From NCBI GenBank assembly GCA_034434515.1, contig DAOTZA010000043.1, positions 1,999-65,998 on the forward strand: a DNA stretch of 64,000 bases. The letters are read 5' to 3'. This DNA comes from Anaerolineales bacterium (GTDB lineage: Bacteria; Chloroflexota; Anaerolineae; Anaerolineales; UBA4823). Position 1 is the first letter of the stretch, and every line of letters begins with the position of its first letter. The translations under genes were made by a program, and so were the position numbers. Shown here piece after piece: positions 26,199 through 52,780 of this stretch. The notes under the pieces are model-generated. The model had not been told where the DNA came from and made no database searches. It saw nothing but the letters and a program-made list of their open reading frames with translations.

Positions 26199-26227
26199 TT
26201 GACACCCCTTCCAAGAATGACTATAAT
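26199..26227 (+). promoter_or_regulatory. Consensus sigma70 promoter for tRNA-Gly
   Basis: TTGACA (26199-26204), 17-nt spacer, TATAAT (26222-26227). It ends 15 nt before the tRNA 5' end. Confidence 0.6.
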
Positions 26228-26242
26228 ATTTGCAACTTGTAA

Positions 26243-26314
26243 GCGGGTGTCGCCAAGCGGTAAGGCAGCAGCTTCCCAAGCTGCCATTCGTGGGTTCGAA
26301 TCCCATCACCCGCT
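26243..26314 (+). tRNA. tRNA-Gly (anticodon CCC)
   Basis: 72-nt cloverleaf folded by hand: acceptor GCGGGTG/CACCCGC, anticodon stem GCAGC/GCTGC with loop TTCCCAA, T-arm GTGGG-TTCGAAT-CCCAT, discriminator U. CCA is not encoded. Confidence 0.9.
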
Positions 26315-26381
26315 CTTTTTATTTTAGATTAAGGAGAAATTTACAGGATTTTTATGACATTTAATGTAAAGTAAGACTGAT

Positions 26382-26771
26382 ATGGAAACGCTACAGAACC
26401 CTCTTATCCTTTATGTAGAAGATAATCTCGATAACCGCATTCTGGTTAGACGCATTTTGGAGGCAGAAGGCTTTCAGGTTGAAGAAGCATCCTCTGGACC
26501 TGAAGCTTTCGAAAAACTAAAAACAATAACACCAGACCTGATCCTGATGGATATCAACTTACCTGAAATCGATGGCTACACATTAACTTCCACTCTAAAA
26601 TCGCAATTCTCTACAAGCATCCCCATCGTTGCCTTGACCGCCAATGTTATGAAAGGCGATCGGGAAAAGACCTTACAAGCTGGCTGTGACGGGTATATAC
26701 AAAAACCGATTGATGTTGATGCCCTTCCCAGTCAGGTGCGCTCCTTCTTAAGCTCTAAAACAAAAGGATAA
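26382..26771 (+). CDS. Single-domain response regulator (CheY-like receiver)
   Basis: ILYVEDN..., phospho-acceptor context LILMDINLP, ALTAN, and K in IQKPI. Confidence 0.85.
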   Translation: METLQNPLILYVEDNLDNRILVRRILEAEGFQVEEASSGPEAFEKLKTITPDLILMDINLPEIDGYTLTSTLKSQFSTSIPIVALTANVMKGDREKTLQAGCDGYIQKPIDVDALPSQVRSFLSSKTKG

Positions 26772-26773
26772 AT

Positions 26774-27208
26774 ATGGCCGGAGCTTTCACCCAAAAAGAT
26801 TCCCACAGTATTGAATTGCAAGATATTACCGTTTTAGTTGTCGAAGACAATGTTTCCAATTTTGTCTTGATAGCCCGGTTACTCGGTTACTTAGGGATCC
26901 ATTGCGAATGGAAAACCTCTGGCTATGAGGTTGTTGAGTATGCCGATTTACTCCCAAAATTGGATTTAATTCTAATGGATATTCGTTTGCCTTATGAAGA
27001 TGGTTATGAGGCTCTCAAGAAAATCCGATCGTCACCTAAGCTCGCCTCTATTCCTGTGATAGCAATAACTGCAGAAGCATCGATGGAACAGATGCAAAAA
27101 GCCCATGCCGCTGGTTTTGATGGCTTCATTGGCAAACCAATTAATCCAGATCGCTTTCCAGAACAGATTCAACAAATCCTGAACGGAGACCCCGTCTGGG
27201 AGCTTTAG
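26774..27208 (+). CDS. Single-domain response regulator (CheY-like receiver), second copy
   Basis: VLVVEDN..., LILMDIRLP, AITAE, IGKPI. It starts 2 nt after the previous stop. Confidence 0.85.
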   Translation: MAGAFTQKDSHSIELQDITVLVVEDNVSNFVLIARLLGYLGIHCEWKTSGYEVVEYADLLPKLDLILMDIRLPYEDGYEALKKIRSSPKLASIPVIAITAEASMEQMQKAHAAGFDGFIGKPINPDRFPEQIQQILNGDPVWEL

Positions 27209-27233
27209 GATTTTTATAGGGAAAGAAAAGAAC

Positions 27234-27947
27234 ATGAATCCACCAAATGACATCATCGAAAATCCAAATATCTTCGACCAGAGTGAGCCTGACTACCTAG
27301 GGCTCTCTGAAGCACGCTCGGAAGAACAAAGTTACTTTCTTAACGATGCGTTGATCTTAATCGAGAGCTTCTTTCGAACGATATCGGGGATTCGGGATAT
27401 TCGATCTTATATCACGATATTTCGCAGCGAAGAGTCTCAAATTTTTCAACTGAAAGACCAGAAGCTACTCGCTACCCCGCCTACACCGCTGATGAATTAC
27501 CTAATCACAGAGATGATGAAAAGCGGTTCTACGTTGCTGTTCACCGACAATTCTCCAAAATCAGCCGAAAACATCGGCAAACCAAGTGGCTCATCCTGGT
27601 TGATTGCGCCTTTGATGAGAGAACACCAGATTATCGGCGCCATTATCGTCCAGGGTCCTAGAAATGGCCCCTATTTTTCCGAGAGTGATAAGCAAATATT
27701 GGCGTCTCTTACCGAACCAATCTCAAATCTTTTCCAAAATGTCCTTAACCTTCAATCTACCCGTAGAGCTCTCGACATACAATATGAAGCAGTTAACGCT
27801 ATTGCAAGAATTCAAGAAGATCTGGCGAAATTGACCGATAAACTCCTCGAAACCCTTGATGTCGATTTGGTACTTCAAACCAGTGTGATCGAGCTACGAG
27901 ATTTGTTTGACCTTGCAGAAGTTGAGATTCGATTGGTTACCGATTAA
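27234..27947 (+). CDS. GAF-like domain protein (function unknown)
   Basis: WLIAPLMREHQIIGAIIVQGP...FSESDKQILASLTEPISNLFQN resembles the C-terminal half of a GAF domain. Confidence 0.5.
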   Translation: MNPPNDIIENPNIFDQSEPDYLGLSEARSEEQSYFLNDALILIESFFRTISGIRDIRSYITIFRSEESQIFQLKDQKLLATPPTPLMNYLITEMMKSGSTLLFTDNSPKSAENIGKPSGSSWLIAPLMREHQIIGAIIVQGPRNGPYFSESDKQILASLTEPISNLFQNVLNLQSTRRALDIQYEAVNAIARIQEDLAKLTDKLLETLDVDLVLQTSVIELRDLFDLAEVEIRLVTD

Positions 27948-27983
27948 TTCTGGGATGCAATTGCTATAAAGAGGAAAAGGGCC

Positions 27984-30443
27984 ATGAAATTCTTCCCCTC
28001 ACTTCAGAAAGTTTCCATCCATACCCGGGTAATCGGGATGTTAACCCTGCTATCCCTTCTGGCAGTTTCTGGAACAGTTTTAAGCGCTCTTTATACGACT
28101 CAAGAGATCGGTAATAGCACCCAAAATTTGAGTGGTGAGATTATCAAAGAGCAAATCACCAGCTCTTTGGTTTCTCTGAATCAAAATGTTGCCATAGATA
28201 CCAGCCGATCTCTGGAAAAGACCGCTAACGATGTTGAATTTCTTGCTCAATACATCCTTGAGATCTGGACCAAACCAGAACAAGAGGTAATGAATTGGGC
28301 TAACGAAGAAATCATCAGAAAAGGCTTATCTGGACAATACTTAAATAGCAAAAGCAACGATTCCAGCCTTTTTGTTCCCAAATACGTTCAACTGACGCCT
28401 GTAATTAAGAATGAAATAGAAAAAAGCCGATATTTAGACTTAATTTTCGAATCGGTTCAAAAAGGGAATCCAAACATTGCCGCCATTTATTTTGCTTCCC
28501 CAAATAATGTAACCAGATATTATCCAAATATCGATCTTGGCAATGTTGTCCCCCCAGACTTTACCGTAACCGAACGCCCTTGGTATCTCGCCGCCATTGA
28601 AAATTCAACCCCTCGCCCCAAGGTTGTTTGGTCTACAATTTATGTAGATGCTACCGGTCTTGGTTTGGTCAGCACCGCCTCCCGTGCCATTTATGATCAT
28701 GGAAAATTGATCGGTGTGGTTGGGATCGATTTACTCGTTGAGGACATCCTTGCCAATGTAGAGGAATCCTTTCAATTGAAAGCAGGATACAACTTTTTAA
28801 TTGACTATCAAGGCTATGCGCTTGCTATGCCTCGCCAGGCATATCTCGATATTCTTGAACGCCAACCCGCAGAAGGCGAATCATTAACTAATCTTAGAGA
28901 CACACGGAACGATTTTCTTCCCATAATTGTCGAAATGCGCCGCGGCAATAGCGGTCTAAAAGAACTCAATATTGGATCGAGGAATTTATTTGTTGCCTAT
29001 ACCTCAGTCCCCAATGTTGATTGGAGTATAGCCAGCGTCGTAGATGCCGCCAGTTATCTCCAGCCCCTTTCTGAACTGGAAAATAAGCTCCAATCTAACA
29101 CCCAACGTTTAATTATTGTGCAAATTCTCCCCTTATCAGCAGCCGTTTTAGTTGTCATTATCTTCCTGGGATTAATTCTTGCTAACGTTATTACAACCCC
29201 AATCCAGCAACTTGCCACCGCTGCTGAAAAACTCAGCCGGAGTGAGTGGGAGGTTGAAATCCCTGAAGACGCCCCGGGAGAAATCGGCTTGTTTGCCCAA
29301 ACCTTCCGCAACATGGCAAATCAACTGAGAGATATCATTGCCAACCTGGAAGAAAAGGTTGCTGAGCGAACTGAAGCTTTACGTAGGAGAGCTATCCAGT
29401 TACAGGCTTCGGTTGAAGTTGGTCGTGCCGTTGCCTCCGAACGAGAGCTGGAAAAATTGCTCTCAATGGTTACCCATTTGATTAGTGAGCGCTTTGGTTT
29501 TTATCATGTTGGTATTTTTCTTGTTGACCCCAAAGGGGAGTACGCCTGGCTAAAGGCTGCTAATAGCGAAGGGGGACAGCGAATGTTGCAACGTCAACAT
29601 CGCTTGAAAGTGAACGAACAGGGAATTGTGGGGTATGTTACCGGAACTGGAAAAGCCCGCATCGCCTTAGATGTTGGCGAAGACGCAGTATTTTTCAATA
29701 ACCCAGACCTTCCCTTCACGCGTTCTGAAATGGCACTTCCCTTGATTGCCCAAGGAAAACTTCTCGGGGCTTTGGACATCCAGAGTGAACAAGGCGGAGC
29801 ATTCACCGAGGAGGATATCGAAGTACTCAGCGGTATGGCAAACCTGATTGCTATTGCCATCCAAAACGCAGAGCTGTTTGCAGAAACCCAGGCAGCTCTC
29901 GAAGCGACTCGCCGGGCTTATCAAGAAATGAGTTTACGGGGTTGGATCGAATTGATCAACCGCTCCCAACATCCAGCCTACCTCAGCACACCCTTGAAAA
30001 AACTGACCCCCTTAACCCACTTATCCGCTCCTATAATAGAAAAAGTCCGTCAAACCAACTCCATTCAAAAGGGAGACGATCATGAATTAGCAATCCCAAT
30101 TATGGTTAAAGGCAATCGGATTGGAGTTCTCCGTCTACGTCGGCAAGCTCACCAACCCCCCTTTACCGATACCGATATTGATTTGTTCCAGGATATTGCC
30201 CTGCGGATTGGAACCGCTCTGGAAGCAGCTCGTCTCTATCAAGAATCACAAAAAAGAGCGTTGCGCGAAAAACTGGTCGGCGAAATCACTTCAAAGATTC
30301 GCTCCTCGAATGAACCGAAAGAGATTCTCAAGATAGCCATTGAAGAATTGCAAAAAGCTCTTCAGGCCACCAAGGCGCAAGTGGCTTTCTTCTCATCGAA
30401 ATCAGCTCTAAGTGATAACGGACACCGTGAGGGATTAGAATGA
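27984..30443 (+). CDS. Membrane sensor: TM - periplasmic Cache-like domain - TM - HAMP - GAF - GAF, with no recognisable transmitter/output domain
   Basis: N-terminal TM (VIGMLTLLSLLAVSGTVLSALY) and second TM (LPLSAAVLVVIIFLGLILANVI). HAMP (TTPIQQLATAAEKL...FAQTFRNMANQL). Two GAF-like blocks. No H-box, HATPase, GGDEF or other output motif seen. Confidence 0.7.
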   Translation: MKFFPSLQKVSIHTRVIGMLTLLSLLAVSGTVLSALYTTQEIGNSTQNLSGEIIKEQITSSLVSLNQNVAIDTSRSLEKTANDVEFLAQYILEIWTKPEQEVMNWANEEIIRKGLSGQYLNSKSNDSSLFVPKYVQLTPVIKNEIEKSRYLDLIFESVQKGNPNIAAIYFASPNNVTRYYPNIDLGNVVPPDFTVTERPWYLAAIENSTPRPKVVWSTIYVDATGLGLVSTASRAIYDHGKLIGVVGIDLLVEDILANVEESFQLKAGYNFLIDYQGYALAMPRQAYLDILERQPAEGESLTNLRDTRNDFLPIIVEMRRGNSGLKELNIGSRNLFVAYTSVPNVDWSIASVVDAASYLQPLSELENKLQSNTQRLIIVQILPLSAAVLVVIIFLGLILANVITTPIQQLATAAEKLSRSEWEVEIPEDAPGEIGLFAQTFRNMANQLRDIIANLEEKVAERTEALRRRAIQLQASVEVGRAVASERELEKLLSMVTHLISERFGFYHVGIFLVDPKGEYAWLKAANSEGGQRMLQRQHRLKVNEQGIVGYVTGTGKARIALDVGEDAVFFNNPDLPFTRSEMALPLIAQGKLLGALDIQSEQGGAFTEEDIEVLSGMANLIAIAIQNAELFAETQAALEATRRAYQEMSLRGWIELINRSQHPAYLSTPLKKLTPLTHLSAPIIEKVRQTNSIQKGDDHELAIPIMVKGNRIGVLRLRRQAHQPPFTDTDIDLFQDIALRIGTALEAARLYQESQKRALREKLVGEITSKIRSSNEPKEILKIAIEELQKALQATKAQVAFFSSKSALSDNGHREGLE

Positions 30444-31228
30444 GTTACGTGATAGCGATTGCAAATCAAAAAGGTGGAGTGGCAAAAACCACCACAGCCG
30501 TTGGATTGAGCGGAGCACTTGTCCAGGAAGGTTATGATGTTTTGGCAATTGATCTGGATGCACAAGCCAATCTCACCATAGCATTAGGCATAAATCCTCT
30601 TCAGGTGCGACGCTCGATTGCCGATATTTTTGTTAATGCTGAAAAGCTTGCTTCTGTCATCCAGGATACCAATCTGCCCGGTCTGGAGCTTGTCCCGGCC
30701 AATAAAGACATGGAACTATCTGAGCGCTTTGTCCCATTACGCCAAAATCATGAAATTCTCTTACGCCAACAATTATCCACACCCGAAATCTCATCTGTTT
30801 ATGATTTCATTGTTCTGGATTGTCCTCCGTACCTTGGAGCAATCACCACCAACGCCCTGGTGGCAGCGCAAATGCTCATCATCCCCACGCAAGCCGAGGT
30901 TTTTTCTCTGAACGCGCTGAAGAACATGATTGCCCAGGTCAAAACAATTCGCCAAACCTTCAATCCTGGCCTCACCTACCGCATCCTCATCACCCTCCGC
31001 GACCTCCGCAGTCGCATTCATCGCACTATGAGCGAACAGCTCTTCAATGCTTTTCCAAATGGCATTCTGAATACAACTATCGACTTAGACACCAAACTGC
31101 GAGAGAGCGCAATGGCGGGTATGCCGGTCACCTATTGTTACCCAAAGAGCCGAGGGGCACAGCAATATCGGTCACTTGCGATGGAGATCTTAGAATATGT
31201 GCGCCAAAAAAATCTCATCCCAGCTTGA
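30440..31228 (+). CDS. ParA/MinD-family P-loop ATPase
   Basis: Deviant Walker A IAIANQKGGVAKTTT, DLDAQANLT, and Walker B FIVLDCPP. ATGA overlap with the sensor gene stop. Confidence 0.85.
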   Translation: MSYVIAIANQKGGVAKTTTAVGLSGALVQEGYDVLAIDLDAQANLTIALGINPLQVRRSIADIFVNAEKLASVIQDTNLPGLELVPANKDMELSERFVPLRQNHEILLRQQLSTPEISSVYDFIVLDCPPYLGAITTNALVAAQMLIIPTQAEVFSLNALKNMIAQVKTIRQTFNPGLTYRILITLRDLRSRIHRTMSEQLFNAFPNGILNTTIDLDTKLRESAMAGMPVTYCYPKSRGAQQYRSLAMEILEYVRQKNLIPA

Positions 31229-33962
31229 AAATTTGCTTATTGAGCTAAATCAAGAGGCACTTCAAACCCAACCGGAGGGATCACCGAATCTACAACCGCA
31301 ATCTGCTCTGTCAAATATCTCCTTAGATACCGACAGAGCAGAGAAACTGCCTCTGACCGGTGATCTAATCAAAGGATACCCGGTACGTCACCCGGAGTCA
31401 TTTAGTCCCTCAGGCAGGGAGACGGTAATTGTTCAATCGAATGGCAGGATAAAAGCTGTCCCATTATCGGCCGGTGAGACGCCTCCATCTGAGTTGTTTC
31501 TTACCGATCTGGGACCGAAAGCCTACCAAACTCATCAATTACTTCTCCAAGATGCGCAAGACCATCAACCCGCTGTTCTGTCCCTGGCAAAACCGCTTGG
31601 CGAGCAAGCGTTTCTGGTTGAATTTATCAAAGACACATCTCAACCCAAGTGGGATCCCGATGAAATCCTTCTACTGGAACAGGTTACCGACCAGTTACAA
31701 CTTGCTCTTGAAAACGCCAACTTGTTCCAAAAAACAAAAGAGGCGTTGCAAGAGACCGAACAAAGAGCAAAAGAATTACGTATCCTGAATGAATTTGGAC
31801 TGTCGCTAACCAATGCTAATAATTTCGAGACAATCTATCAAACCGTCTTTGAGTGTGTCTCTCGCTTAATGAATGCTCACAATTTCTATGTTGCCATCTA
31901 CAACGAGCGAACCGAAAGCATTTCTTTTCCATTCGTTATCTTAGATGGAATTCCGCTGGATGAAACTCACCCAGAGGCAGGGTTTTGGATGGGAGAAATG
32001 CCCGTTGAAGGTTTGACCGGCCATGTAATTCAAACCAAACAACCGCTATTACTGACCGAAGGTGTTGAAAATCAATTGCGCCATTCAAACCTGAATTTTA
32101 TCCAAATCGGAGCAGTGGCTGCCAAATCCTGGTTGGGCGTCCCAATGCTCTATGGCGATAAGGTGATTGGCGTAATCTCCGTCCAGCATGAACAGATTCC
32201 CAACTTATATGACCAACATCATGTGGAGCTCTTAACCACCATTGGTAACCAGACGGCGATTGCTATCCAGAATGTTCAGTTCCTTCAAGAATTAAGTCAA
32301 CGGGCAGAACAATTGCAAACGGCTGCTGAAATCGCCCGCGATACTTCTGGTACGCTCGCGTTGGATCAATTACTAAACCGAGTCGTCAACCTGGTCAGAG
32401 ATCGCTTTGGTTTCTACCATTCTTCCATTTTCCTGATTGATGAAGATCGCCACTACGCTGTCGTGCGGGAGTCGACTGGCGAAGCCGGAGAGGCAATGAA
32501 ACGCGCGGGGCATAAGCTGGCAGTCGGATCACAATCGATCATCGGCTATGTGACTCAACATGGCGAACCTTTGGTCATTAACGATGTGTCGCAAAGCGAC
32601 ATCCATCGCCCCAATCCGCTTCTCCCTGAGACGAAATCCGAATTAGGCATTCCCTTGAAAATTGGCGACCAGGTGATTGGCGCTCTCGATGTGCAATCCA
32701 CACAAAAGAATGCCTTTTCAGCCGATGACGTCTCAGTCTTGCAATTGCTTGCCGATCAAATTGCGGTTGCCATCAGTAATGCTCAGGCTTACGAGCTCTC
32801 GCAGCAAGCAATTGAGGAAATGGCAAAAGCCGATCAATTAAAGAGCCAGTTCCTGGCGAATATGAGCCATGAGTTACGCACACCGCTCAATTCCATCATC
32901 GGCTTCTCAAGAGTGATCTTAAAGGGCATCGATGGCCCAATAACTGACTTGCAAAGACAAGACCTCAATGCAATCTACAACTCTGGACAGCACTTGCTCA
33001 GCCTCATCAATGACATTCTCGACTTGTCAAAAATCGAGGCCGGCAAGATGGAATTAATGTTTGAAGATGATGTCAATCTCAGCGAAATCATTCAAAGTGT
33101 TTTACCTACGGTGCGAGGGTTAATCAAAGATAAACCCATTGAGTTACACGTCAATCTAGACCCCAATGTTCCCCTGGTTCGCGCTGACCCGACAAAAATT
33201 CGTCAAATCTTGCTCAATTTGCTTTCGAATGCAGCCAAATTTACCGAACAAGGCTCAATTACGATTCAAACCCAAATCGAAAGAATCAATTCTCATGAAG
33301 AAGTCCAGATCAGTGTAACCGACACGGGTATAGGAATTGCTGAAGAAGACCAATCAAAGCTATTCGAACCTTTCTCGCAGGTCGATGCCTCACCGACTCG
33401 GAAAACCGGTGGTACCGGTCTGGGACTTTCAATCTCACGCTATCTGGTGGAGATGCATGGGGGTAAGATTGGCTTGAAGAGCGAATTAGGGAAAGGTTCG
33501 ACCTTTTATTTCACCATCCCCGTTCCAGGCTCCCACCAAGAGCCTTCTGAAGCGCCAAGCGCAACTCAAAACTCCATCCCATCCAATACGGTATTAGCCA
33601 TAGACCGGGAAGAGCTGGTTCTCAACCTGTACGAACGTTACCTGGCTGACTATGAACTTCGAGTTGTAAAATGCTCTTTACCCGAACAGGCTATCCAACT
33701 GGCAGAAACATTATCCCCTTCAGTGATCATCATCGACACAGCAATAGAGTTCAATTCTGACCCCACCAAGGATGGTTGGCATCTCATCCAGGAATTAAAA
33801 TCAAAGCCTACCACAGCAAAAATCCCGATTGTGATCTGTTCTCTAATTGAGGACCGGGAACGTGCCAGGCAGGTTGGGGTCAGTGAATATTTACTTAAGC
33901 CCATAATGGAAGATGATTTAACCTCAGCCCTAAAAAAGATCATCCAAGGTGTGAAAACATAG
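31197..33962 (+). CDS. Hybrid sensor histidine kinase (GAF-GAF-HisKA-HATPase_c-receiver-like)
   Basis: H-box FLANMSHELRTPLNSI, N-box LLNLLSNAAKFT, G-boxes DTGIGI and GGTGLGLSI. The C-terminal REC-like domain (VIIIDTAIE...) has a degenerate acidic pocket. The start may be the TTG at 31233 instead of the ATG at 31197, which overlaps parA by 32 nt. Confidence 0.8.
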   Translation: MCAKKISSQLENLLIELNQEALQTQPEGSPNLQPQSALSNISLDTDRAEKLPLTGDLIKGYPVRHPESFSPSGRETVIVQSNGRIKAVPLSAGETPPSELFLTDLGPKAYQTHQLLLQDAQDHQPAVLSLAKPLGEQAFLVEFIKDTSQPKWDPDEILLLEQVTDQLQLALENANLFQKTKEALQETEQRAKELRILNEFGLSLTNANNFETIYQTVFECVSRLMNAHNFYVAIYNERTESISFPFVILDGIPLDETHPEAGFWMGEMPVEGLTGHVIQTKQPLLLTEGVENQLRHSNLNFIQIGAVAAKSWLGVPMLYGDKVIGVISVQHEQIPNLYDQHHVELLTTIGNQTAIAIQNVQFLQELSQRAEQLQTAAEIARDTSGTLALDQLLNRVVNLVRDRFGFYHSSIFLIDEDRHYAVVRESTGEAGEAMKRAGHKLAVGSQSIIGYVTQHGEPLVINDVSQSDIHRPNPLLPETKSELGIPLKIGDQVIGALDVQSTQKNAFSADDVSVLQLLADQIAVAISNAQAYELSQQAIEEMAKADQLKSQFLANMSHELRTPLNSIIGFSRVILKGIDGPITDLQRQDLNAIYNSGQHLLSLINDILDLSKIEAGKMELMFEDDVNLSEIIQSVLPTVRGLIKDKPIELHVNLDPNVPLVRADPTKIRQILLNLLSNAAKFTEQGSITIQTQIERINSHEEVQISVTDTGIGIAEEDQSKLFEPFSQVDASPTRKTGGTGLGLSISRYLVEMHGGKIGLKSELGKGSTFYFTIPVPGSHQEPSEAPSATQNSIPSNTVLAIDREELVLNLYERYLADYELRVVKCSLPEQAIQLAETLSPSVIIIDTAIEFNSDPTKDGWHLIQELKSKPTTAKIPIVICSLIEDRERARQVGVSEYLLKPIMEDDLTSALKKIIQGVKT

Positions 33963-35651
33963 ATGTCTCAAACCAACTTCTTCGTTCAATGCCTGGATTG
34001 TGAAAACACAGAACCCTTTCGGGTTAATCAAACAGCTTGCTCCCATTGTGGGAGCAACTGGCGTGAAGTACACTACGACCTTGCAGAGGTAAAAGAGATT
34101 TTCGAAAAATCTTTACCCGAACGCCCCTTTAATTTGTGGCGGTATCGCGAGTTATTACCTGTTACCGAATATCTTCCCTATCTATCCATGGGGGAGGGCG
34201 GTACCCCACTCATTCACGCCAATAACCTCGGAATGATGCTTGGCTGTCCTACTTTATTTGTCAAAGATGAACGTCAAGGTCCTACGAACTCATTTAAAGA
34301 CCGTCAAGCAGCAGTAGCCATTGCGGCAATGAAGGAAGCGTCCGTCACTGAAGCGGTTTTAGCCTCAACCGGCAATGTAGCCATTGCTTACTCTGCCTAT
34401 GCCGCCAGAGCCGGAATTAAGTTGTGGGCTTTTCTAACCAGCCTTGTCCCTCTGGAAAAAATGCGCGAAGTAGCTATTTACGGTACAAAGGTCATTAAGG
34501 TTACAGGCACTTACGATGAAGCCAAGCGACTAGCAGCAGAGTTTGCGCGCCAACGCCACCTTCACCTCGAACGCGGGGCTTGCTCGATCCCTTCAGTCGA
34601 ATCGATGAAAACCCTAGCTTTTGAAATCGCTGAGCAATTGACCTATTCTCTGAGCTCGGTTTCCTCTACCCAGTCTGTTATAGCGACAAAATGGAAAGCA
34701 CCCGACTGGTACGTGCAATCCGTCAGTGGCGGAATAGGTCCATTGGGTGTCCTGAAAGGATTTACAGAATTGTATCAAATGGGATTGATCGATCGAATCC
34801 CTTCAATCGCCTGTATCCAAGCAGAGGGATGCGCTCCGATGGTAAAAGCTTGGAAAGCCAATAAAGCCGTTGCCGATCCAATCCTGAATCCCCAAACACA
34901 TATTACTACCCTCTCAACCGGCGACCCTGGTCGCACGTATACCCTGCTCCGAGAGAGAATATTAGAATCCGGAGGAGGGGCATTTGAAAGTGTCAGTGAC
35001 GAAGAAACCTTTCGCACCATTCATATCCTTGCTAAACTCGAGGGTCTATCTACTGAATCGGCTGCTGCAGTCGCTTTTGCTGGGGCGATAAAGCTATTTC
35101 GACAAGGCATCATCAAACCCAACGAAATTGTGGTCATAAACTGCACCGGCCACACAATGCCGGTTGAAAACCTCATTTTGGGTGATGGTTGGGCAACCGA
35201 CATTTCTGTTTCCAGAGTTGAGATGGAAACCAAACCTCAAGAAGGCCTCTATGGGGCATTAAGCAACCTGACCCCAGAAAAGGTGCGAAAAATTGTCATT
35301 ATCGATGACATCGAAGACGCTCGCCGTCTACTGCGAAGGATTTTACAATCTCAAGGCGACTTTATCATTCGTGAAGCGGAAAATGGCATTAAAGGCATTC
35401 AATTGATTAAAGAAGACCCGCCAGACGTAATTATCTTAGATTTAATGATGCCCGAAGTAGATGGTTTTGCCGTCCTGAATCAGCTCCAGGAATACCCTGA
35501 TTTGGCGTCCATTCCTGTCATTGTGGTCACAGCCAAAGAATTGACGAAAGAGGAAACCCTGTTGCTGAAAGGGAAAGTAAAAGCCTTAATGCATAAGGGA
35601 AAATTTATGAGCGACGATCTGGCCGATGAAATATTAGAAGCCATTCATTGA
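33963..35651 (+). CDS. Threonine-synthase-like fold-type-II PLP enzyme fused to a C-terminal response-regulator receiver domain
   Basis: N-terminal Zn-ribbon CLDCEN...CSHCGS. PLP-lysine motif PTNSFKDRQAA and a threonine-synthase-like core. C-terminal canonical REC (VIIDDIED..., VIILDLMMPEVDG, VVTAKE). Its ATG directly abuts the kinase stop codon. Confidence 0.75.
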   Translation: MSQTNFFVQCLDCENTEPFRVNQTACSHCGSNWREVHYDLAEVKEIFEKSLPERPFNLWRYRELLPVTEYLPYLSMGEGGTPLIHANNLGMMLGCPTLFVKDERQGPTNSFKDRQAAVAIAAMKEASVTEAVLASTGNVAIAYSAYAARAGIKLWAFLTSLVPLEKMREVAIYGTKVIKVTGTYDEAKRLAAEFARQRHLHLERGACSIPSVESMKTLAFEIAEQLTYSLSSVSSTQSVIATKWKAPDWYVQSVSGGIGPLGVLKGFTELYQMGLIDRIPSIACIQAEGCAPMVKAWKANKAVADPILNPQTHITTLSTGDPGRTYTLLRERILESGGGAFESVSDEETFRTIHILAKLEGLSTESAAAVAFAGAIKLFRQGIIKPNEIVVINCTGHTMPVENLILGDGWATDISVSRVEMETKPQEGLYGALSNLTPEKVRKIVIIDDIEDARRLLRRILQSQGDFIIREAENGIKGIQLIKEDPPDVIILDLMMPEVDGFAVLNQLQEYPDLASIPVIVVTAKELTKEETLLLKGKVKALMHKGKFMSDDLADEILEAIH

Positions 35652-35664
35652 CCTCTCGAAAGCA

Positions 35665-36666
35665 ATGCTTGAAAAAACTGCTGCGCCGTTAAAAATCCAG
35701 ACCTATACCCTGTCGGTTCGCGGCGTTTTTCCAGCAGTTTTATCGGCAATCCTCCTTGGCTTCGCCCCCATTTTTGGCAAACTTGCCATTCAAAATGGCG
35801 TTTCCCCTTTGTTCGTTGTAACGGTCCGGACGGTTCTGGCAACTTTGTTTATGGCTATCACATTGCTGTTTACGAACCGGCTCAACTTTTATATCTACCC
35901 TGCGGGTTTAATGGCATGTGCATTGGCGGGAACATTGAATGGAATCGGTTCACTTTTTTATTATCTGGCTTTATCGATGATCAACGCCAACCTGGGACAA
36001 TTGATCTTCTTAACTTATCCGGTCTTTGTCACCCTATGGATGGTTTTTGATCACTATAAACCATCATCGGTTTCCCTGCTAAGACTTGCACTCATCGTCC
36101 TTGGGATTGTTTTGTTAATTTACGGGATACATACCCCTGTACGTCTTAGAGGCATCCTTTTTATGTTGATTGCCGCAGCTTGCTATGGATTGCATCTGCC
36201 TATCAACCAACGTGTCCTTTATGAAATGCCAGCTCCCACAGTAACTTTCTATACCTTGCTCTTCATGTCACTTGCTGTTATACCATCCAGCTTATTGATT
36301 CCTCAGCCACTGCAATTATCCCCTGAAAAATCACTTGAACTTCTACCGTTCTTTCCGGTACTGGCTTTAGCTCTGGTTACTTTTCTTTCGAGATTAACCC
36401 TTTTTTTGGGCGTAAAGCGGATTGGTGGACTTCAAACGGCTTTGCTGGGAGTGACGGAACTCTTGGTAACGCTGACTCTGGCAAAGGTATGGCTATACGA
36501 AACTTTCAACTTCCTTCAATGGGTTGGCGCACTGTTGATCCTGTTAAGCCTTCTGCTAATTGGTCTCGAAAAGCCTCCTCAACGGCAAGCAGCAAAACCC
36601 ACTCTTCTTCACTGGTTACAACACTTGCCATCTAAAGAGCCTCCTAACCCTCCGCTAATCGACTAG
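35665..36666 (+). CDS. EamA/DMT-superfamily transporter (10 TM)
   Basis: Two EamA-like halves, hydrophobic throughout. It starts 13 nt after the previous gene. Confidence 0.75.
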
Positions 36667-36785: not shown

Positions 36786-37703
36786 ATGAAACATTTTCTT
36801 GATGTCCTGGATTATTCTTCAGAAGATTTGCAAGCGATGTTAGATTTGGCAATAAAACTCAAAAAACAATGGAAAGCAGGTGGAAATCCACCCTTGCTCA
36901 GAGGGAAAGTCCTGGGAATGATCTTTCAAAAGCCTAGCCTGCGCACACGGGTTTCTTTTGATATGGCTATGCGACATTTAGGCGGGGATGCGTTGTATCT
37001 TTCACCAGCAGAAATCGGCCTAGGCAAACGAGAAGCCATCAGCGACGTAGCCCGAGTCTTATCCGGTTATGTAGACGCTATTATGGCGCGGGTGTTTGAA
37101 CACGAACACGTTCTCGAACTGGCTCGTTGGGCAAGTGTTCCGGTGATCAATGGCCTAAGCGACTACAATCATCCCTGCCAGGCAATGGCAGATGCCTTGA
37201 CGATTTACGAAAAATTTGGCAAGCTAAAAGGAATTCAAGTAACCTTCGTCGGTGATGGAAACAATGTGGCAGTCTCTTTGATGCACGTTTGCGTAAAACT
37301 CGGCGCGAACTTCACCATCGCTAATCCAGAAGGTTATGATATGCCCACGCAAGCTGTCGAACTTGCTAAAGAGGTCGCCCGCAAAACCGGCAGTCAACTA
37401 AATTTCTTGCGCGACCCTCATCAAGCTGTCAAAGGCGCCCAGGTAATCTATACCGATACCTGGACCAGCATGGGACAAGAAGAAGAAGCTCAAATTCGAG
37501 AGAAAGTATTCCCCCCATATCAGGTCAACCCACAATTGGTCTCTGAAGCCGACAAAGATGTCATCGTCATGCACTGTTTGCCTGCCCATCGTGGGCAAGA
37601 GATCACGGACGAAGTCGCCGATGGACCGCATTCTGCTCTCTTCCCTCAGGCTCACAATCGACTTCATGCTCAAAAAGCAATTCTGGTTAAGTTGCTAACT
37701 TAG
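36786..37703 (+). CDS. argF: Ornithine carbamoyltransferase
   Basis: Carbamoyl-phosphate motif [10 protein letters not shown], plus [17 protein letters not shown] and [10 protein letters not shown]. 305 aa. Confidence 0.8.
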
Positions 37704-37721
37704 CAGAAAAGAGGTCATTCT

Positions 37722-38804
37722 ATGAATATTGGAGTTCCGAAAGAGCGACGTCCTTTTGAATTTCGCGTCGGTTTAACCCCGGCTGGCGTGCAAATGCTTG
37801 TCGAACAGGGCCACATCTGCTATGTCGAACACGAAGCCGGTTTGGCAGCCGGTTTTGTCGATCAGGAATATGAAAATGCCGGCGCCCGGATTGTCTATTC
37901 TCCCCATGAAGTCTTTGGCAGAGCAGACCTACTGCTCAAGGTTGCCCGCCCCACTCTTGAGGAGATTAACTGGCTACGCCCGGGATCAACGGTTACCGGC
38001 CTGCTTCACCTCACCTCAGCCAGACAGGAAAAGATCGAAGCCCTACTTAAATCTCAAATCACTGCAATCGCTTTTGAACAAGTTTCGCTTCCAGATGGCA
38101 CCATGCCAATTCGTCGTCCTCTTGCTACTATAGGCGGTGTGATGGTGTCTCAAATAGCAGCGCGTCTTTTGCAAACCGATGCTGGGGGCAAAGGGATGCT
38201 CTTAGGCGGTGTGGTGGGGGTTCCTCCCGCTGAGGTGGTTATTGTCGGCGCAGGTGTTACCGGCACAGCAGCGACAAAAGGTTTTGTTGGGATGGGCGCT
38301 CATGTTACCGTATTAGATACCAATATTGCTGCTCTCGAAAGGTTATATGATCGCTTCCCAAGTATTTTGACCCTGATCAGCAACCCAATTAATCTCAGAC
38401 GTGTCGTTTCGTACGCCGATGTTCTTGTCGGAGCGGTTTTGGTTCCTCATCAGCGCTCTCCCATCGTCATTACTCGCGAGATGGTTAAGCTTATGAAACC
38501 GCGCTCGATCATTATTGACATGAGCATAGATGAAGGCGGTTGTGTCGAGACATCCAGACCGACTACTCACGACCGCCCAACTTATATTGAAGAAGGGGTT
38601 GTGCATTATTGCGTCCCAAATGTGCCAAGTGTAATTGCTCGTACAGCCACCTATGCTTATGTCAACGCTGCTTTTCCCTATATCCAGGAATTAGCTAATA
38701 AAGGGGTTGAACGAGCTATTCAAGAAGATGGCGCTTTGGGAATCGCTGTAGCAACGCACCGCGGTCAAACTATTCATCTCAGCAGACTCACTCCGGCTGT
38801 ATAG
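37722..38804 (+). CDS. ald: Alanine dehydrogenase family protein
   Basis: MNIGVPKERRPFEFRVGLTPAGV..., NAD-binding VVIVGAGVTGTAA, and YCVPNVPS. Confidence 0.75.
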   Translation: MNIGVPKERRPFEFRVGLTPAGVQMLVEQGHICYVEHEAGLAAGFVDQEYENAGARIVYSPHEVFGRADLLLKVARPTLEEINWLRPGSTVTGLLHLTSARQEKIEALLKSQITAIAFEQVSLPDGTMPIRRPLATIGGVMVSQIAARLLQTDAGGKGMLLGGVVGVPPAEVVIVGAGVTGTAATKGFVGMGAHVTVLDTNIAALERLYDRFPSILTLISNPINLRRVVSYADVLVGAVLVPHQRSPIVITREMVKLMKPRSIIIDMSIDEGGCVETSRPTTHDRPTYIEEGVVHYCVPNVPSVIARTATYAYVNAAFPYIQELANKGVERAIQEDGALGIAVATHRGQTIHLSRLTPAV

Positions 38805-38814
38805 GAAGGCGTAC

Positions 38815-40110
38815 ATGGACTGGATTCAACAATATCAATCTAGAATTGTTACAGCCGAGGAAGCAGTAAGAAATATCAAATCTCATCAACGGCTTTTCCT
38901 GACCGGGAACTGTTCGGTACCTCAAAAACTCCTTGCTGCTCTCGTCGAATTTGCCCCAAATCTCGAGAATGTAGAGATATGCCACGCCCTTACCGTCGGA
39001 CCGGCCGACTACGTCAAACCAGAGATGCAGGGTCATCTTCGTGTTAACACCATGTTTATCAGCAGCAACATCCGTAAAGCTGTTCACGAAGGACGCGTTG
39101 ACTTTACCCCCGTCTTGTTATCCGAATTTCCACTCCTATTCAAGCGCAAAATCTTACCAGTAGATGTGGCCTTAATTCACGTCTCCCCACCGGATGAACA
39201 TGGCTTTTGCAGCTTCGGCATTGAGGTTGGACTGACAAAAAGCGTTGCTGAATCGGCAGCCATGATTATCGCCGAAGTCAACCAACAGATGCCGCGTACC
39301 CTTGGAGACTCCTTTATTCACGTTAGTCGCTTGAATTACATGGTGCCAACCGATTACGAACTCCCTGAACTCCCCATGGCGGATGAAGAAAATGCAGAAA
39401 TCTACGAAAAAATTGCCTCCTATGTCGCCGAGCTCATTCCGGATGGAGCAACCATGCAAATGGGAATCGGGGCTATCCCAGACGCTGTCTTAAAACATCT
39501 ATTTACCAAAAAAGATTTGGGGGTTCACACCGAAATGTTTTCTGATGGCGTTATCGACCTCGTCGAAGCCGGAGTTTTAACCAACAGTCGCAAAACATTG
39601 CACCCCGGAAAAATCATTGCTGGCTTCATACTCGGGACAAAACGCCTATACAAATGGGTAGACGACAACCCATTAATTGAACTTCACCCAACTGAATATG
39701 TCAATGATCCGTTTATCATCGCTCAAAATGAGCGTATGGTTGCAATCAACTCGGCTATCGAGGTAGATCTCACCGGGCAAGTCTGTGCAGATAGCATTGG
39801 ACATCGGCTCTTCAGTGGCGTCGGTGGACAATTGGATTTCATCTATGGTTCCTCACGCTCGAAAGGCGGTGTGCCCATAATCGCCCTGCCCAGCACAGCA
39901 AAAGACTTTAGCCGTATTGTTGCCACGCTTAAGCCCGGTGCAGGTGTTGTCACCACTCGCAACCACGTTCATTACATCATTACTGAACACGGAATTGCTG
40001 ACCTATACGGGAAAACCATTCGCCAGCGAGCTCAAGCGTTAATCAACATCGCCCATCCCAAGTTCCGCGAAGAATTAACCCGTCAAGCCAAAGAAATGAA
40101 TTATATTTAG
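38815..40110 (+). CDS. Acetyl-CoA hydrolase/transferase family protein (4-hydroxybutyrate CoA-transferase-like)
   Basis: GATMQMGIGAIPDAV, catalytic-Glu context HTEMFSDG, INSAIEVDLTGQV, SGVGGQLDF. 431 aa. Confidence 0.75.
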   Translation: MDWIQQYQSRIVTAEEAVRNIKSHQRLFLTGNCSVPQKLLAALVEFAPNLENVEICHALTVGPADYVKPEMQGHLRVNTMFISSNIRKAVHEGRVDFTPVLLSEFPLLFKRKILPVDVALIHVSPPDEHGFCSFGIEVGLTKSVAESAAMIIAEVNQQMPRTLGDSFIHVSRLNYMVPTDYELPELPMADEENAEIYEKIASYVAELIPDGATMQMGIGAIPDAVLKHLFTKKDLGVHTEMFSDGVIDLVEAGVLTNSRKTLHPGKIIAGFILGTKRLYKWVDDNPLIELHPTEYVNDPFIIAQNERMVAINSAIEVDLTGQVCADSIGHRLFSGVGGQLDFIYGSSRSKGGVPIIALPSTAKDFSRIVATLKPGAGVVTTRNHVHYIITEHGIADLYGKTIRQRAQALINIAHPKFREELTRQAKEMNYI

Positions 40111-40112
40111 GG

Positions 40113-41546
40113 ATGATTTGCAAAACCAAGATTGTCGCCACAATTGGTCCAGCCAGCTCGGATTTTGCAACCCTTAGCGAACTCATCCGGGCTGGTGTTC
40201 GCATCTTCCGCATTAACTGTTCCCATGGCAGCAAGGCGGAGCGAATTCAGCTCATTCGATTATGCAGACAGGCTTCTAAAAGTTTGGATATCCCCATTGC
40301 GATCATGATCGATTTACAAGGGCCGAAAATTCGTATCGGAGAATTAGAAAAACCGTCCATCACCCTGCAAATCGGACAAACCGTAAAAGTTACCAATCAA
40401 CCGATCCGCGGCGATGAAAAATCCTTTTCCATTGAATTCCCTGGACTGATGAATAATATCCAGATTGGTAATCGCATCTTGTTAGATGATGGGAAAATTG
40501 AACTGAAAGTCATTCGGAAACAGACATATGCCCTTGAAGCGGAAGTAATCGTTGGCGGCGAATTGCTTCCCCGCAAAGGCGCTAACTTTCCCGATTCTGA
40601 ATTGTCTCTCTCTGGGATTACCGAAAAAGACCTCGATGATCTTCGTATGGGCATGGATAATTCCATTGATGCCATTGCCCTATCGTTTGTCCAGAGTGAA
40701 AAGGATATTCTCGACTTAAAACAACATATTGAAAATAGATATCCAAAGAGTAAAAATGTTCCCCTCATTGCCAAAATCGAACGTCCGCAAGCCCTAGCGC
40801 ACTTATCAGCGATTCTGGAACATGCTGACGGGGTTATGGTGGCGAGAGGGGATTTAGCCATTGAAATCTCTCCTGCATGTGTTCCAACAGCTCAAAAAGA
40901 AATTATCACTACAGCCAATCGAATGGGGAAGTATGTCATCACCGCAACTCAAATGCTAGAGTCGATGATTGAAAACGCAATCCCCACCCGAGCAGAAGCC
41001 AATGATGTAGCCAACGCAGTATTCGATGGAAGTGATGCCGTGATGCTTTCTGCTGAAACCTCGATCGGAAAACATCCCATTCTTGCCGTCAAAACGATGG
41101 TCTCGATCATCGAAGAGGCAGAAAAAAACCTTGCTCATTGGTCGGTCTGGGATGGAAAACTCACCCCCAAATCGGCTGATGAGGACAGTTATTTTGTCAT
41201 CGAAGCTGCACGTGATCTCAGCAAAGATCGAAATGTAAACGCCATCTGCGTATTCACCCAAAGCGGTCGGACAGCTATTCTTCTATCCAAAACGCGCCCT
41301 GATGTACCCATCTATGCCTTTACCCCAAACCCGGATACCTACACTCAACTCAGCCTTTATTGGGGAGTTCAAAGTTTCCTGACCCCGCGAGCCAACAATC
41401 TGGATGAAATATTATCCATCATCGAAAATTCAGTTTCCCAACCAGATCACCTCAAGTCAGGCGACCAGGTCGTATTGATCTGCGGCTATCCTGTTCAGAA
41501 ATTCAGGTCTGCTAACCTGGTCATGCTCCACACTTTCCCTTATTGA
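40113..41546 (+). CDS. pyk: Pyruvate kinase
   Basis: KTKIVATIGPAS, FRINCSHG, IMIDLQGPKIR, MVARGDLAIE, MLSAETSIGKHP. Confidence 0.9.
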   Translation: MICKTKIVATIGPASSDFATLSELIRAGVRIFRINCSHGSKAERIQLIRLCRQASKSLDIPIAIMIDLQGPKIRIGELEKPSITLQIGQTVKVTNQPIRGDEKSFSIEFPGLMNNIQIGNRILLDDGKIELKVIRKQTYALEAEVIVGGELLPRKGANFPDSELSLSGITEKDLDDLRMGMDNSIDAIALSFVQSEKDILDLKQHIENRYPKSKNVPLIAKIERPQALAHLSAILEHADGVMVARGDLAIEISPACVPTAQKEIITTANRMGKYVITATQMLESMIENAIPTRAEANDVANAVFDGSDAVMLSAETSIGKHPILAVKTMVSIIEEAEKNLAHWSVWDGKLTPKSADEDSYFVIEAARDLSKDRNVNAICVFTQSGRTAILLSKTRPDVPIYAFTPNPDTYTQLSLYWGVQSFLTPRANNLDEILSIIENSVSQPDHLKSGDQVVLICGYPVQKFRSANLVMLHTFPY

Positions 41547-43920: not shown

Positions 43921-44106
43921 TAACCCCAAAACAACAACCCCACCGTGCCGTGTGCTGCGAAGTTTTGAACCTGCCTTCGCAGGTGGGTTCCTCCCCAAAT
44001 GATCCGCCTTGGCTTCCGCCTATCGCGTCACATTTGTGAGCTTGGAACCCTTTTTGTGGGTGTTGGCCCAAAACCCGAGCACAGCATCACGAACACAGTA
44101 GGGTTA
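43921..44106. ncRNA. Candidate structured RNA (rod-like, ~186 nt; 6S-like or 3'-UTR-derived sRNA) in a convergent intergenic region
   Basis: Nested long-range pairings: TAACCC(43921-26)/GGGTTA(44101-06); GTG(43945-47)/CAC(44088-90); TGTGCT(43951-56)/AGCACA(44078-83); GTTTTG(43962-67)/CAAAAC(44069-74); GGGTTCC(43985-91)/GGAACCC(44044-50). Local hairpin ACCTGC-CTTC-GCAGGT (43969-84). A possible minus-strand extended -10 TGGTATAAG sits at 44112-44120. Confidence 0.3.
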
Positions 44107-44151
44107 ACATTCTTATACCATAAAATCTAAATCATGAGTAGAGTTTTTAGA

Positions 44152-52465: not shown

Positions 52466-52590
52466 ACTAAACTCGCACAAGGATCGAACCAATGGGCTTT
52501 TCAAAAATAATGATCAGCCCTATGGTTTCGTTTAACCTATGCAAAGTCGCATAACTATTATATAATCAATTTAGAAAAAACAAAATAGAA

Positions 52591-52780
52591 CTGCAGGGGA
52601 GAGGCTCAAACGTGAGCGCCGAAGGGGCAAGTTCAGTAGATAGGCGAGCTGGACGAAACTCTCAGGCAAAAGGACCCTGCAGGGATGACCTCTGGAAAGT
52701 CTTCCTATCCCAAAGATAGGTTGCACCGACGGGGCAAACGGAGAACCAACTTCCGTGAATCTCTCAGGTCAAAGACAGAG
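52591..52780 (+). promoter_or_regulatory. Tandem glycine riboswitch (two aptamers)
   Basis: Aptamer 1: P1 CTGCAGG(52591-97)/CCTGCAG(52676-82), GGGAGAGG, GCCGAAGGGGCAA, CTCAGGCAAAAGGAC. Aptamer 2: P1 CTCTG(52690-94)/CAGAG(52776-80), CACCGACGGGGCAA, CTCAGGTCAAAGACA. It lies directly upstream of gcvH. Confidence 0.85.

Follow-up and report, generated by a model that had tools for sequence, protein, structure and literature searches.

Two-component systems are known mainly for the control of transcription, motility and second messengers, and whether one of them could act directly on an amino-acid-forming enzyme is the question raised by a gene of an Anaerolineales bacterium (Chloroflexota; assembly GCA_034434515.1, contig DAOTZA010000043.1, positions 1,999 to 65,998 of the forward strand). 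This stretch of 64,000 nucleotides is hereafter called the window. At 33963-35651 (+) of the window, an open reading frame (ORF) with an ATG start and a TGA stop encodes a fusion protein of 562 aa, in which a Zn-ribbon, a pyridoxal phosphate (PLP)-dependent core similar to threonine synthase (ThrC), a linker and a response-regulator receiver domain (REC) follow one another. Sequence comparison leads us, with roughly even confidence, to read it as a response regulator whose output would be a specialised, signal-gated enzyme of the ThrC family, controlled by a kinase, coupled to a transporter and likely eliminating phosphate from an O-phospho-amino acid.

The fusion protein is divided into four parts:

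33978-34076 (+): N-terminal Cys4 Zn-ribbon, residues 6-38, with C10, C13, C26 and C29
34185-35144 (+): fold-type-II PLP core, residues 75-394 (Pfam PALP), with the Schiff-base lysine K112 (codon 34296-34298)
35145-35285 (+): conserved interdomain linker, residues 395-441
35286-35630 (+): receiver domain, residues 442-556 (Pfam), with the phospho-acceptor D493 (codon 35439-35441)

The PALP match (residues 75-394, E = 6.5e-58) scored 196.8 bits against a cutoff of 35, and that of Response_reg (PF00072; residues 444-532, E = 5.3e-19) scored 68.9 bits against a gathering score of 30.2; the top PDB match for the receiver was RR468 of T. maritima (4ja2; E = 1e-17; query residues 442-553). The Zn-ribbon, the lysine motif and the receiver motifs listed by a first-pass annotation of this DNA were all found at the sites it quoted, namely the cysteines C10/C13/C26/C29, NSFKDRQAA with K112, VIIDDIED (D448/D449), ILDLMMP (D493) and VVTAKE (T523), together with K545. 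Its linker of 25-30 aa needs correction, because the connection actually spans about 45 aa (395-441) and includes the residues L406, G407, E427, G428, L429 and A432, which were invariant in 78 sequences. An AlphaFold2 model (mean predicted local distance difference test, pLDDT, of 79.4) predicts this linker to be partly structured, with a strand at 411-415, a helix at 429-433 and low pLDDT at 416-430, and places beta strands of the Zn-ribbon at 6-10 and 34-38.

The first matter to settle is whether two genes, one for a ThrC and one for a response regulator, were joined by an assembly or frameshift error, which the first-pass annotation had named as one of the ways in which its proposal could fail. 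One genome per GTDB species was scanned for relatives of the fusion, and these were found in at least 144 species genomes. The best 80 of the 144 positive genomes were kept for locus analysis; their loci include the cultured Ornatilinea apprima P3M-1 and metagenome-assembled genomes labelled Leptolinea, Anaerolinea, Thermoflexales and Ca. Aquidulcis. The best 120 database clusters for the query were all of the PALP+REC type, 61-96% identical to it and nearly all about 555-590 aa in length (two were fragments truncated at the N-terminus), and the members with a named source came from Anaerolineales or Chloroflexota. An artefact has a practically negligible chance and was rejected, since the uninterrupted architecture occurs in hundreds of independent assemblies (NCBI, JGI, ENA and Logan), an isolate genome among them, and since residues of the linker itself are invariant. 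The comparisons thus argue that the fusion is genuine and ancient.

Mapping of the fusion across databases, which had been proposed along with the first-pass annotation, resolved three paralogous groups:

Group A (with the query): about 562 aa, PALP-REC; source labels Anaerolineales and relatives
Group B: about 548 aa, PALP-REC; source labels Aggregatilineales and Anaerolineae; at least 120 clusters, with a few REC-less relatives among them
Group C: about 700 aa, PALP-REC-REC; source labels Chloroflexota and Anaerolineae; at least 120 clusters

The taxonomic labels of these groups overlap, with Anaerolineaceae in both A and C and Aggregatilineales in both B and C. Database names are inconsistent, being either 'threonine synthase' or 'pyridoxal-phosphate dependent enzyme'.

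Conservation was counted residue by residue in 197 distinct fusion proteins. None of the Zn-ribbon cysteines varies, save for one alignment gap at C13; SFKDR including K112 is invariant, STGN is invariant save for one T136A, and the Gly-rich loop is invariant or nearly so. The PLP domain as a whole is the best-conserved region (mean agreement with the column consensus of 0.78). The receiver quintet is similarly well kept: D448 is D in 179 and E in 17 proteins, D449 is found in 196/197, D493 in 197/197, T523 is T in 191 and S in 6, and K545 is found in 196/197. It is equally kept in group B and in both receivers of group C. Because catalytic, Zn-ribbon and receiver residues are all conserved, both halves of the fusion appear to be selected as working domains, and by its sequence the receiver is predicted to be fully competent for phosphorylation.

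What kind of enzyme, then, is the conserved PLP domain? Its closest solved relatives are class I ThrCs, of which the Aquifex enzyme 2ZSJ came first (E = 1e-46), with those of M. tuberculosis, Thermus and B. subtilis also among them, at 28-34% identity over about 345 residues. The best Foldseek matches are likewise ThrC structures (TM-score on target of 0.82-0.85; root-mean-square deviation of 2.2-2.9 A for the best chains), and the ThrC-like enzyme CapA2 (9k3c) is among the top fold matches. The class I enzymes (Aquifex aeolicus 2ZSJ, Thermus thermophilus 1UIM/1V7C, M. tuberculosis 2D1F and B. subtilis 6CGQ/6NMX) share with the query the fold, the SFKDR motif and the STGN loop, but the query has in addition the N-terminal Zn-ribbon and the C-terminal linker and receiver. 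One test of ThrC membership (EC 4.2.3.1) was a score at or above the NCBIfam equivalog cutoffs, chiefly those of TIGR00260 and NF006050. The query is below every one of the NCBIfam ThrC cutoffs, with 155.3 against 167.1 for TIGR00260, 248.1 against 303 for NF006050 and far lower scores for the other ThrC models, whereas the more distant Zn-ribbon ThrCs P0149, P0151, P0161 and P0163 clearly pass both and P0246 passes TIGR00260 only. These scores suggest a specialised role.

Four canonical ThrC motifs are exchanged in the fusion clade:

NS.NP.R.EGQKT of canonical ThrC: ERGA(R/C)SIPSVE.MKT in the fusion clade
GNAGN of canonical ThrC: SGG.GP in the fusion clade
TIATAI.IG.P of canonical ThrC: TL(S/A)TGDPGR in the fusion clade
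TGNG of canonical ThrC: TGH in the fusion clade

The new set is common to all fusion groups and in part also to the nearest non-fusion relatives. In the structure of T. thermophilus ThrC with a substrate analogue, the phosphate ligands are reportedly T88, N154, S155, R160 and N188 (Omi et al. 2003), an assignment cross-checked here only by the numbering of the Aquifex alignment. When the query was aligned to the Aquifex and M. tuberculosis enzymes, all five positions were found to be replaced, by V139, R204, G205, S211 and G256, respectively. The first-pass annotation had allowed that essential residues might prove to be lacking on proper alignment; the Schiff-base K112, SFKDR, STGN and the Gly-rich loop stand, and the pocket positions are replaced. 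The five replacements are conserved in the fusion family, which also has new basic residues, R204, R/K207 and R324 (position 207 is a Cys in the query), and an invariant H397; together they argue for a phosphate pocket that is remodelled, not necessarily lost. The label 'ThrC-like' given by the annotation is therefore apt, as the query fails all the equivalog cutoffs and its pocket is remodelled. At 34638-34700 (residues ~226-246), a PLP-domain helix is separated from the APDWY strand by an insertion of variable length (15-27 aa) and low pLDDT. It is missing in canonical ThrC and in the nearest non-fusion relatives (P0122, P0126 and P0131-P0150), and the group C members P0123-P0125 have shorter forms of it.

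These data bear on the possibility that the fusion is simply the organism's ordinary and sole threonine synthase, in which case threonine, and hence isoleucine, synthesis would be throttled by a two-component signal and the EamA-family transporter encoded downstream would act as an overflow valve. E. coli RhtA is an EamA-family threonine exporter. We regard this as rather unlikely, though it is the strongest of the competing explanations. It would fit with ThrC being the best match among both structures and family models, with the very wide distribution and strong conservation of the fusion in Anaerolineae, and with the name threonine synthase that NCBI gives to group B. A search of the window and of some 1.5 Mb of DNA around related loci revealed no further ThrC, although the absence of one from flanks says little of the remaining genome. 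In related Zn-ribbon ThrCs with scores above the cutoffs, the C-terminal place of the receiver is taken by a LeuA-type allosteric domain, as expected for biosynthetic feedback control. On the other hand, the failed cutoffs and the five altered pocket positions speak against an ordinary ThrC, as do three paralogous groups with overlapping taxonomic labels; at the loci examined, the fusion gene is never beside hom or thrB and always inside a signalling cassette, and an orthologue in the cyanobacterium Planktothrix tepida appears to coexist with a canonical ThrC2.

ThrC homologues with other activities had also to be considered. MetM is often misannotated as ThrC (GapMind preprint), and replacement enzymes of this kind that exist among ThrC homologues are routinely annotated as ThrC (GapMind preprint; PMC12172450). 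The MetM-type enzyme of Microcystis, ThrC_1, whose sequence was taken from the Data S1 proteomics table of PMC12172450, is 51.6% identical to MetM of S. albulus (PMC12172450); like the query it is a ThrC homologue with an N-terminal extension, usually annotated threonine synthase, and it acts on O-phosphohomoserine. The PLP part of the query is 33% identical to Microcystis ThrC_1 and 33% to Aquifex ThrC, which places it in neither lineage, and the motifs of ThrC_1 (NINLRPYYSEGSKT, PLASGSLF, IGNPADG and TGNGLK) differ from its own; identity with MetM was rejected on both grounds. Cysteate synthase was rejected too, as the TIGR03844 model gave 79.8 bits against a cutoff of 324.9. Placement of the PLP domain, which the first-pass annotation had left between ThrC, ThrC-like enzymes, cysteate synthase and other fold-type-II enzymes, thus points to a ThrC fold in a separate lineage.

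It could still be imagined that, instead of forming threonine, the domain catalyses a replacement reaction like that of MetM or cysteate synthase, with O-phosphohomoserine or O-phosphoserine as substrate and a sulfur nucleophile, by which the cassette would make a sulfur amino acid under a signal. CapA2 among the fold matches and a pocket unlike that of ThrC are in keeping with this, and E. coli EamA (YdeD) exports cysteine-pathway metabolites. We hold it improbable, given that the query is no closer to the Microcystis enzyme than to Aquifex ThrC and has other motifs, that the cysteate-synthase score is low, and that neither a small MetO-like carrier ORF flanking the fusion gene nor, by Rfam, a S-adenosylmethionine (SAM) riboswitch in the window was found.

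Orthologues without a receiver provide a further line of evidence. A few proteins of 395-426 aa with the same motifs, 48-52% identical to the PLP part of the query, occur in cyanobacteria, among them P. tepida (WP_222425234.1) and Pseudanabaena sp. PCC 6802 (WP_225902657.1). They share the motif set in the forms SGG/SGA-MGP, TGNPG and SGH, but have no receiver and neither a kinase nor an EamA neighbour. In neighbour-joining bootstraps, all three fusion groups together with the REC-less forms were monophyletic in 199/200 replicates, group B with its REC-less sisters in 200/200 and the fusions alone in 0/200, so that the REC-less forms nest inside the fusion clade and most simply arose by loss of the receiver. 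Their existence there indicates that the PLP domain can work alone and that the receiver is probably a regulatory add-on. The P. tepida protein (P0408) is 34.8% identical to Microcystis ThrC_1, and a 'ThrC3' of P. tepida (34.5%) has been reported beside a canonical ThrC2 and a MetM-type ThrC (PMC12172450); P0408 appears to match this ThrC3 and would then be a third ThrC paralogue, extra rather than housekeeping, in that cyanobacterium. Because the pocket is remodelled and this orthologue is an apparent third paralogue, a specialised enzyme is favoured over a housekeeping ThrC. A convergent SDF-family (PF00375) transporter gene and a gene for an SBP_bac_3 amino-acid-binding protein adjoin the cyanobacterial REC-less genes (L086 11221-13940 and L089 7336-10206), so that amino-acid transport is encoded next to these genes as well.

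What, then, could control the enzyme? The fusion gene lies in a signalling operon whose other genes are as follows:

26382-26771 (+): stand-alone receiver, 129 aa, first gene of the operon (ORF; its orthologue in locus L001 is annotated PF00072)
26774-27208 (+): second stand-alone receiver, 144 aa (Pfam Response_reg, E = 1.1e-21)
27234-27947 (+): small GAF-domain protein, 237 aa (Pfam GAF_2, E = 5.9e-07)
27984-30443 (+): dCache-HAMP-GAF-GAF sensor protein without a kinase domain, 819 aa (Pfam)
30440-31228 (+): ParA/MinD-like ATPase, 262 aa, with the deviant Walker A motif KGGVAKTT (Pfam AAA_31, E = 4.9e-48)
31197-33962 (+): hybrid histidine kinase GAF-GAF-HisKA-HATPase_c-REC, 921 aa, with the H-box SHELRTP at residue 557 (Pfam); presumably cognate to the fusion
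35665-36666 (+): EamA/DMT-family transporter, 333 aa (Pfam EamA PF00892 in two stretches, E = 1.7e-29)

Gene boundaries in the operon overlap or abut; the ATPase gene, for example, starts with an overlap of 4 nt with the dCache-HAMP-GAF-GAF gene. The fusion start directly abuts the stop of the kinase gene and an EamA-family transporter gene lies next to it, as the first-pass annotation had stated: the TAG of the kinase is at 33960-33962, the fusion ATG begins at the very next base, and the EamA gene begins 13 nt past the fusion stop. The TIGR00950 model gave only 50.1 against a cutoff of 230.2 for the EamA protein. No DNA-binding or other effector domain was found within 26382-36666, and the enzyme, with the transporter, is therefore the only candidate output of the operon. 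The small GAF protein is also present in the closest relatives L001/L006 and in L010, and partially at the end of L002. In the kinase's own receiver (33585-33962), D-R-E takes the place of the usual acidic pair, with the acceptor Asp, the Ser and the Lys-Pro kept.

The arrangement is widely conserved among the 80 species loci. In 62/67 evaluable loci, the gene immediately before the fusion, on the same strand, encodes a kinase, and in 48 of the 55 complete upstream kinases the alignment extends through the C-terminal receiver. EamA is directly downstream in 61/74 evaluable loci, the other 13 having a 415-aa REC-HisKA-HATPase kinase in its place. Where at least 9 kb of upstream sequence was available (53 loci), a ParA-like gene was found upstream in 36 and a Cache/HAMP/GAF protein gene, on the same strand, in 40. 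The order kinase-fusion-EamA is retained in group B loci, and the Cache/GAF proteins and the kinase are retained in group C loci. The kinase linkage thus holds in all three groups, and linkage to the transporter is confined to groups A and B. The highly conserved 415-aa kinase follows the fusion in Thermoflexales-type loci (L072 11666-12913, L065 2056-3303, L076 and L083), and an EamA gene lies near on the opposite strand in L060, L070, L073, L075 and L081 of the same type. In group C, L090 (10001-13607) and L091 (10001-14050) have the PALP-REC-REC fusion followed by one or two stand-alone receiver genes and a conserved GNAT gene product of about 300 aa.

Under the preferred reading, the GAF domains of the adjacent kinase would sense a signal, perhaps with help from the Cache-HAMP-GAF protein, and the kinase would phosphorylate D493 of the fusion receiver. 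The phosphorylated receiver could then, through the conserved linker, rearrange the PLP dimer or change how its active site closes, and thereby switch catalysis, in a manner comparable to the receiver of CheB or the C-terminal modules of IlvA and cystathionine beta-synthase. Elimination of phosphate from O-phosphohomoserine or O-phosphoserine is, to our knowledge, what every characterised enzyme of the ThrC family carries out, for which reason it would also be the most likely chemistry of the fusion, giving threonine or a gamma/beta-replacement product. EamA may carry the product out or the substrate in.

The number of receivers in the operon permits another explanation, namely that the PLP domain is an input. 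As a sensor, it would bind an amino acid or a phospho-amino acid, turn it over hardly if at all and thereby tune how the attached receiver gains or loses phosphoryl groups, which would make the protein a metabolite-gated phosphate sink or connector. Four receivers for one kinase, with no Hpt found, are typical of sink or branch architectures, a C-terminal receiver is unusual for enzymatic response regulators, and the Thermoflexales-type loci put a second REC-kinase straight after the fusion. Against a sensor stand the catalytic lysine and the whole cofactor-binding set, invariant in about 200 sequences, with the PLP domain as the most conserved part; the stand-alone cyanobacterial orthologues imply that this domain does something alone, and the cassette has no downstream effector for a sink to modulate. 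Strict conservation of catalytic residues and the stand-alone orthologues make the sensor explanation less likely than a regulated enzyme, and we put its chance as slight.

Several observations weigh against a specialised enzyme switched by the adjacent kinase. Confidence of the model is low in the beta5-alpha5 region of the receiver and in the linker. The kinase is a hybrid with its own receiver, two further stand-alone receivers are present, and none of the operon's proteins matched an Hpt domain, which makes the phosphoryl route to D493 among the four receivers ambiguous. Group C loci are without EamA, and have stand-alone receivers and a GNAT acetyltransferase downstream instead. The NCBI name of group B, together with P0122, which just passes the ThrC cutoffs, makes true ThrC activity quite possible. 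Moreover, the MetM-type Microcystis enzyme, which is without the canonical Arg position, turns over O-phosphohomoserine in vitro (PMC12172450), and the pocket changes therefore do not exclude this substrate for the fusion.

How new would such a regulator be? Enzymatic response regulators such as the CheB methylesterase, the PleD diguanylate cyclase, the HD-GYP protein RpfG and the RssB/PP2C types likewise have a receiver in cis with a catalytic domain, an intact receiver quintet and a gene beside a kinase. Unlike in these, the receiver of the fusion is C-terminal, the output is a PLP-dependent amino-acid-metabolising enzyme, and group C has two tandem receivers. Fold-type-II enzymes with C-terminal regulators include IlvA, with ACT-like domains, and cystathionine beta-synthase (CBS), with a Bateman module. 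These enzymes and the ThrC-LeuA_dimer proteins resemble the fusion in having a regulatory module on the C-terminus of a fold-type-II core, but their modules bind metabolites (Ile/Val, SAM and Leu), whereas that of the fusion would be a phosphorylation switch wired to a sensor kinase. By this analogy, the C-terminal add-on may control domain closure or oligomerisation allosterically. Regulatory modules at the C-terminus are a recurrent feature of ThrC-family enzymes, as in the LeuA_dimer fusions: Zn-ribbon ThrCs of about 611-620 aa with a C-terminal LeuA_dimer domain (P0161 and P0187; e.g. QQS59532.1 of Ca. Peregrinibacteria) pass the ThrC cutoffs and are apparently undescribed as fusions.

Response regulators with enzyme outputs and fold-type-II enzymes with C-terminal regulators are thus already known, and what is new is the receiver on a ThrC-family PLP enzyme. 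In the literature on threonine synthase and receivers, response-regulator censuses and Anaerolineae, no published description of a ThrC-like or other PLP enzyme linked to a receiver was found, in agreement with the first-pass annotation, to whose knowledge none had been characterised. More speculatively, and unlikely as a whole, the three fusion groups could form an unrecognised class of two-component outputs, in which a kinase gates a PLP enzyme making a non-housekeeping amino acid or derivative. EamA would export this product in groups A and B, and in group C the GNAT protein might acetylate it; among these filamentous bacteria, which live in communities, it would serve as an intercellular signal or a cross-feeding currency. 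The remodelled pocket (R204, R/K207, R324 and H397) would then select a substrate or nucleophile that ThrC does not use.

If the fusion is indeed a kinase-controlled enzyme, it would represent post-translational, signal-dependent control of an amino-acid-forming reaction and a new output class for response-regulator censuses. With three groups spread over well above a hundred species, the family is sizeable, and its hosts are members of a class that has been little studied although it abounds in environments such as sludge, sediments and hot springs; since one host, Ornatilinea apprima, is in culture, the question is open to experiment. The inconsistent labelling of this ThrC-like lineage also matters for metabolic reconstructions of Anaerolineae.

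Some further features of the window may be recorded. A perfect sigma-70 consensus, TTGACA-17-TATAAT (12/12), at 26199-26227 (+) directly precedes a tRNA-Gly(CCC) gene, which lies 67 nt ahead of the first receiver gene (region 26199-26315, +), and the signalling operon may be read through from this tRNA-Gly promoter. No riboswitch or leader was found upstream of the fusion; the Rfam matches in the window were only the tRNA-Gly, a 6S RNA (43933-44107, -; 74 bits) and a distant glycine riboswitch aptamer (52586-52687, +; 70.6 bits). Past EamA, at 36786-41546 (+), lie genes for an ornithine carbamoyltransferase, an AlaDH/PNT-like dehydrogenase, an acetyl-CoA hydrolase/transferase and a pyruvate kinase, and an AlaDH-like and/or acetyl-CoA-hydrolase gene is downstream in 20/53 related loci. 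This metabolic block may reflect plain synteny or a metabolic link, and the AlaDH-like protein could belong to the ornithine cyclodeaminase family that, according to a mention in the GapMind preprint, was recently described. Over the whole window (1-64000), GC skew is negative in all 2-kb bins (cumulative -3.37), yet most genes of the studied region are on the + strand.

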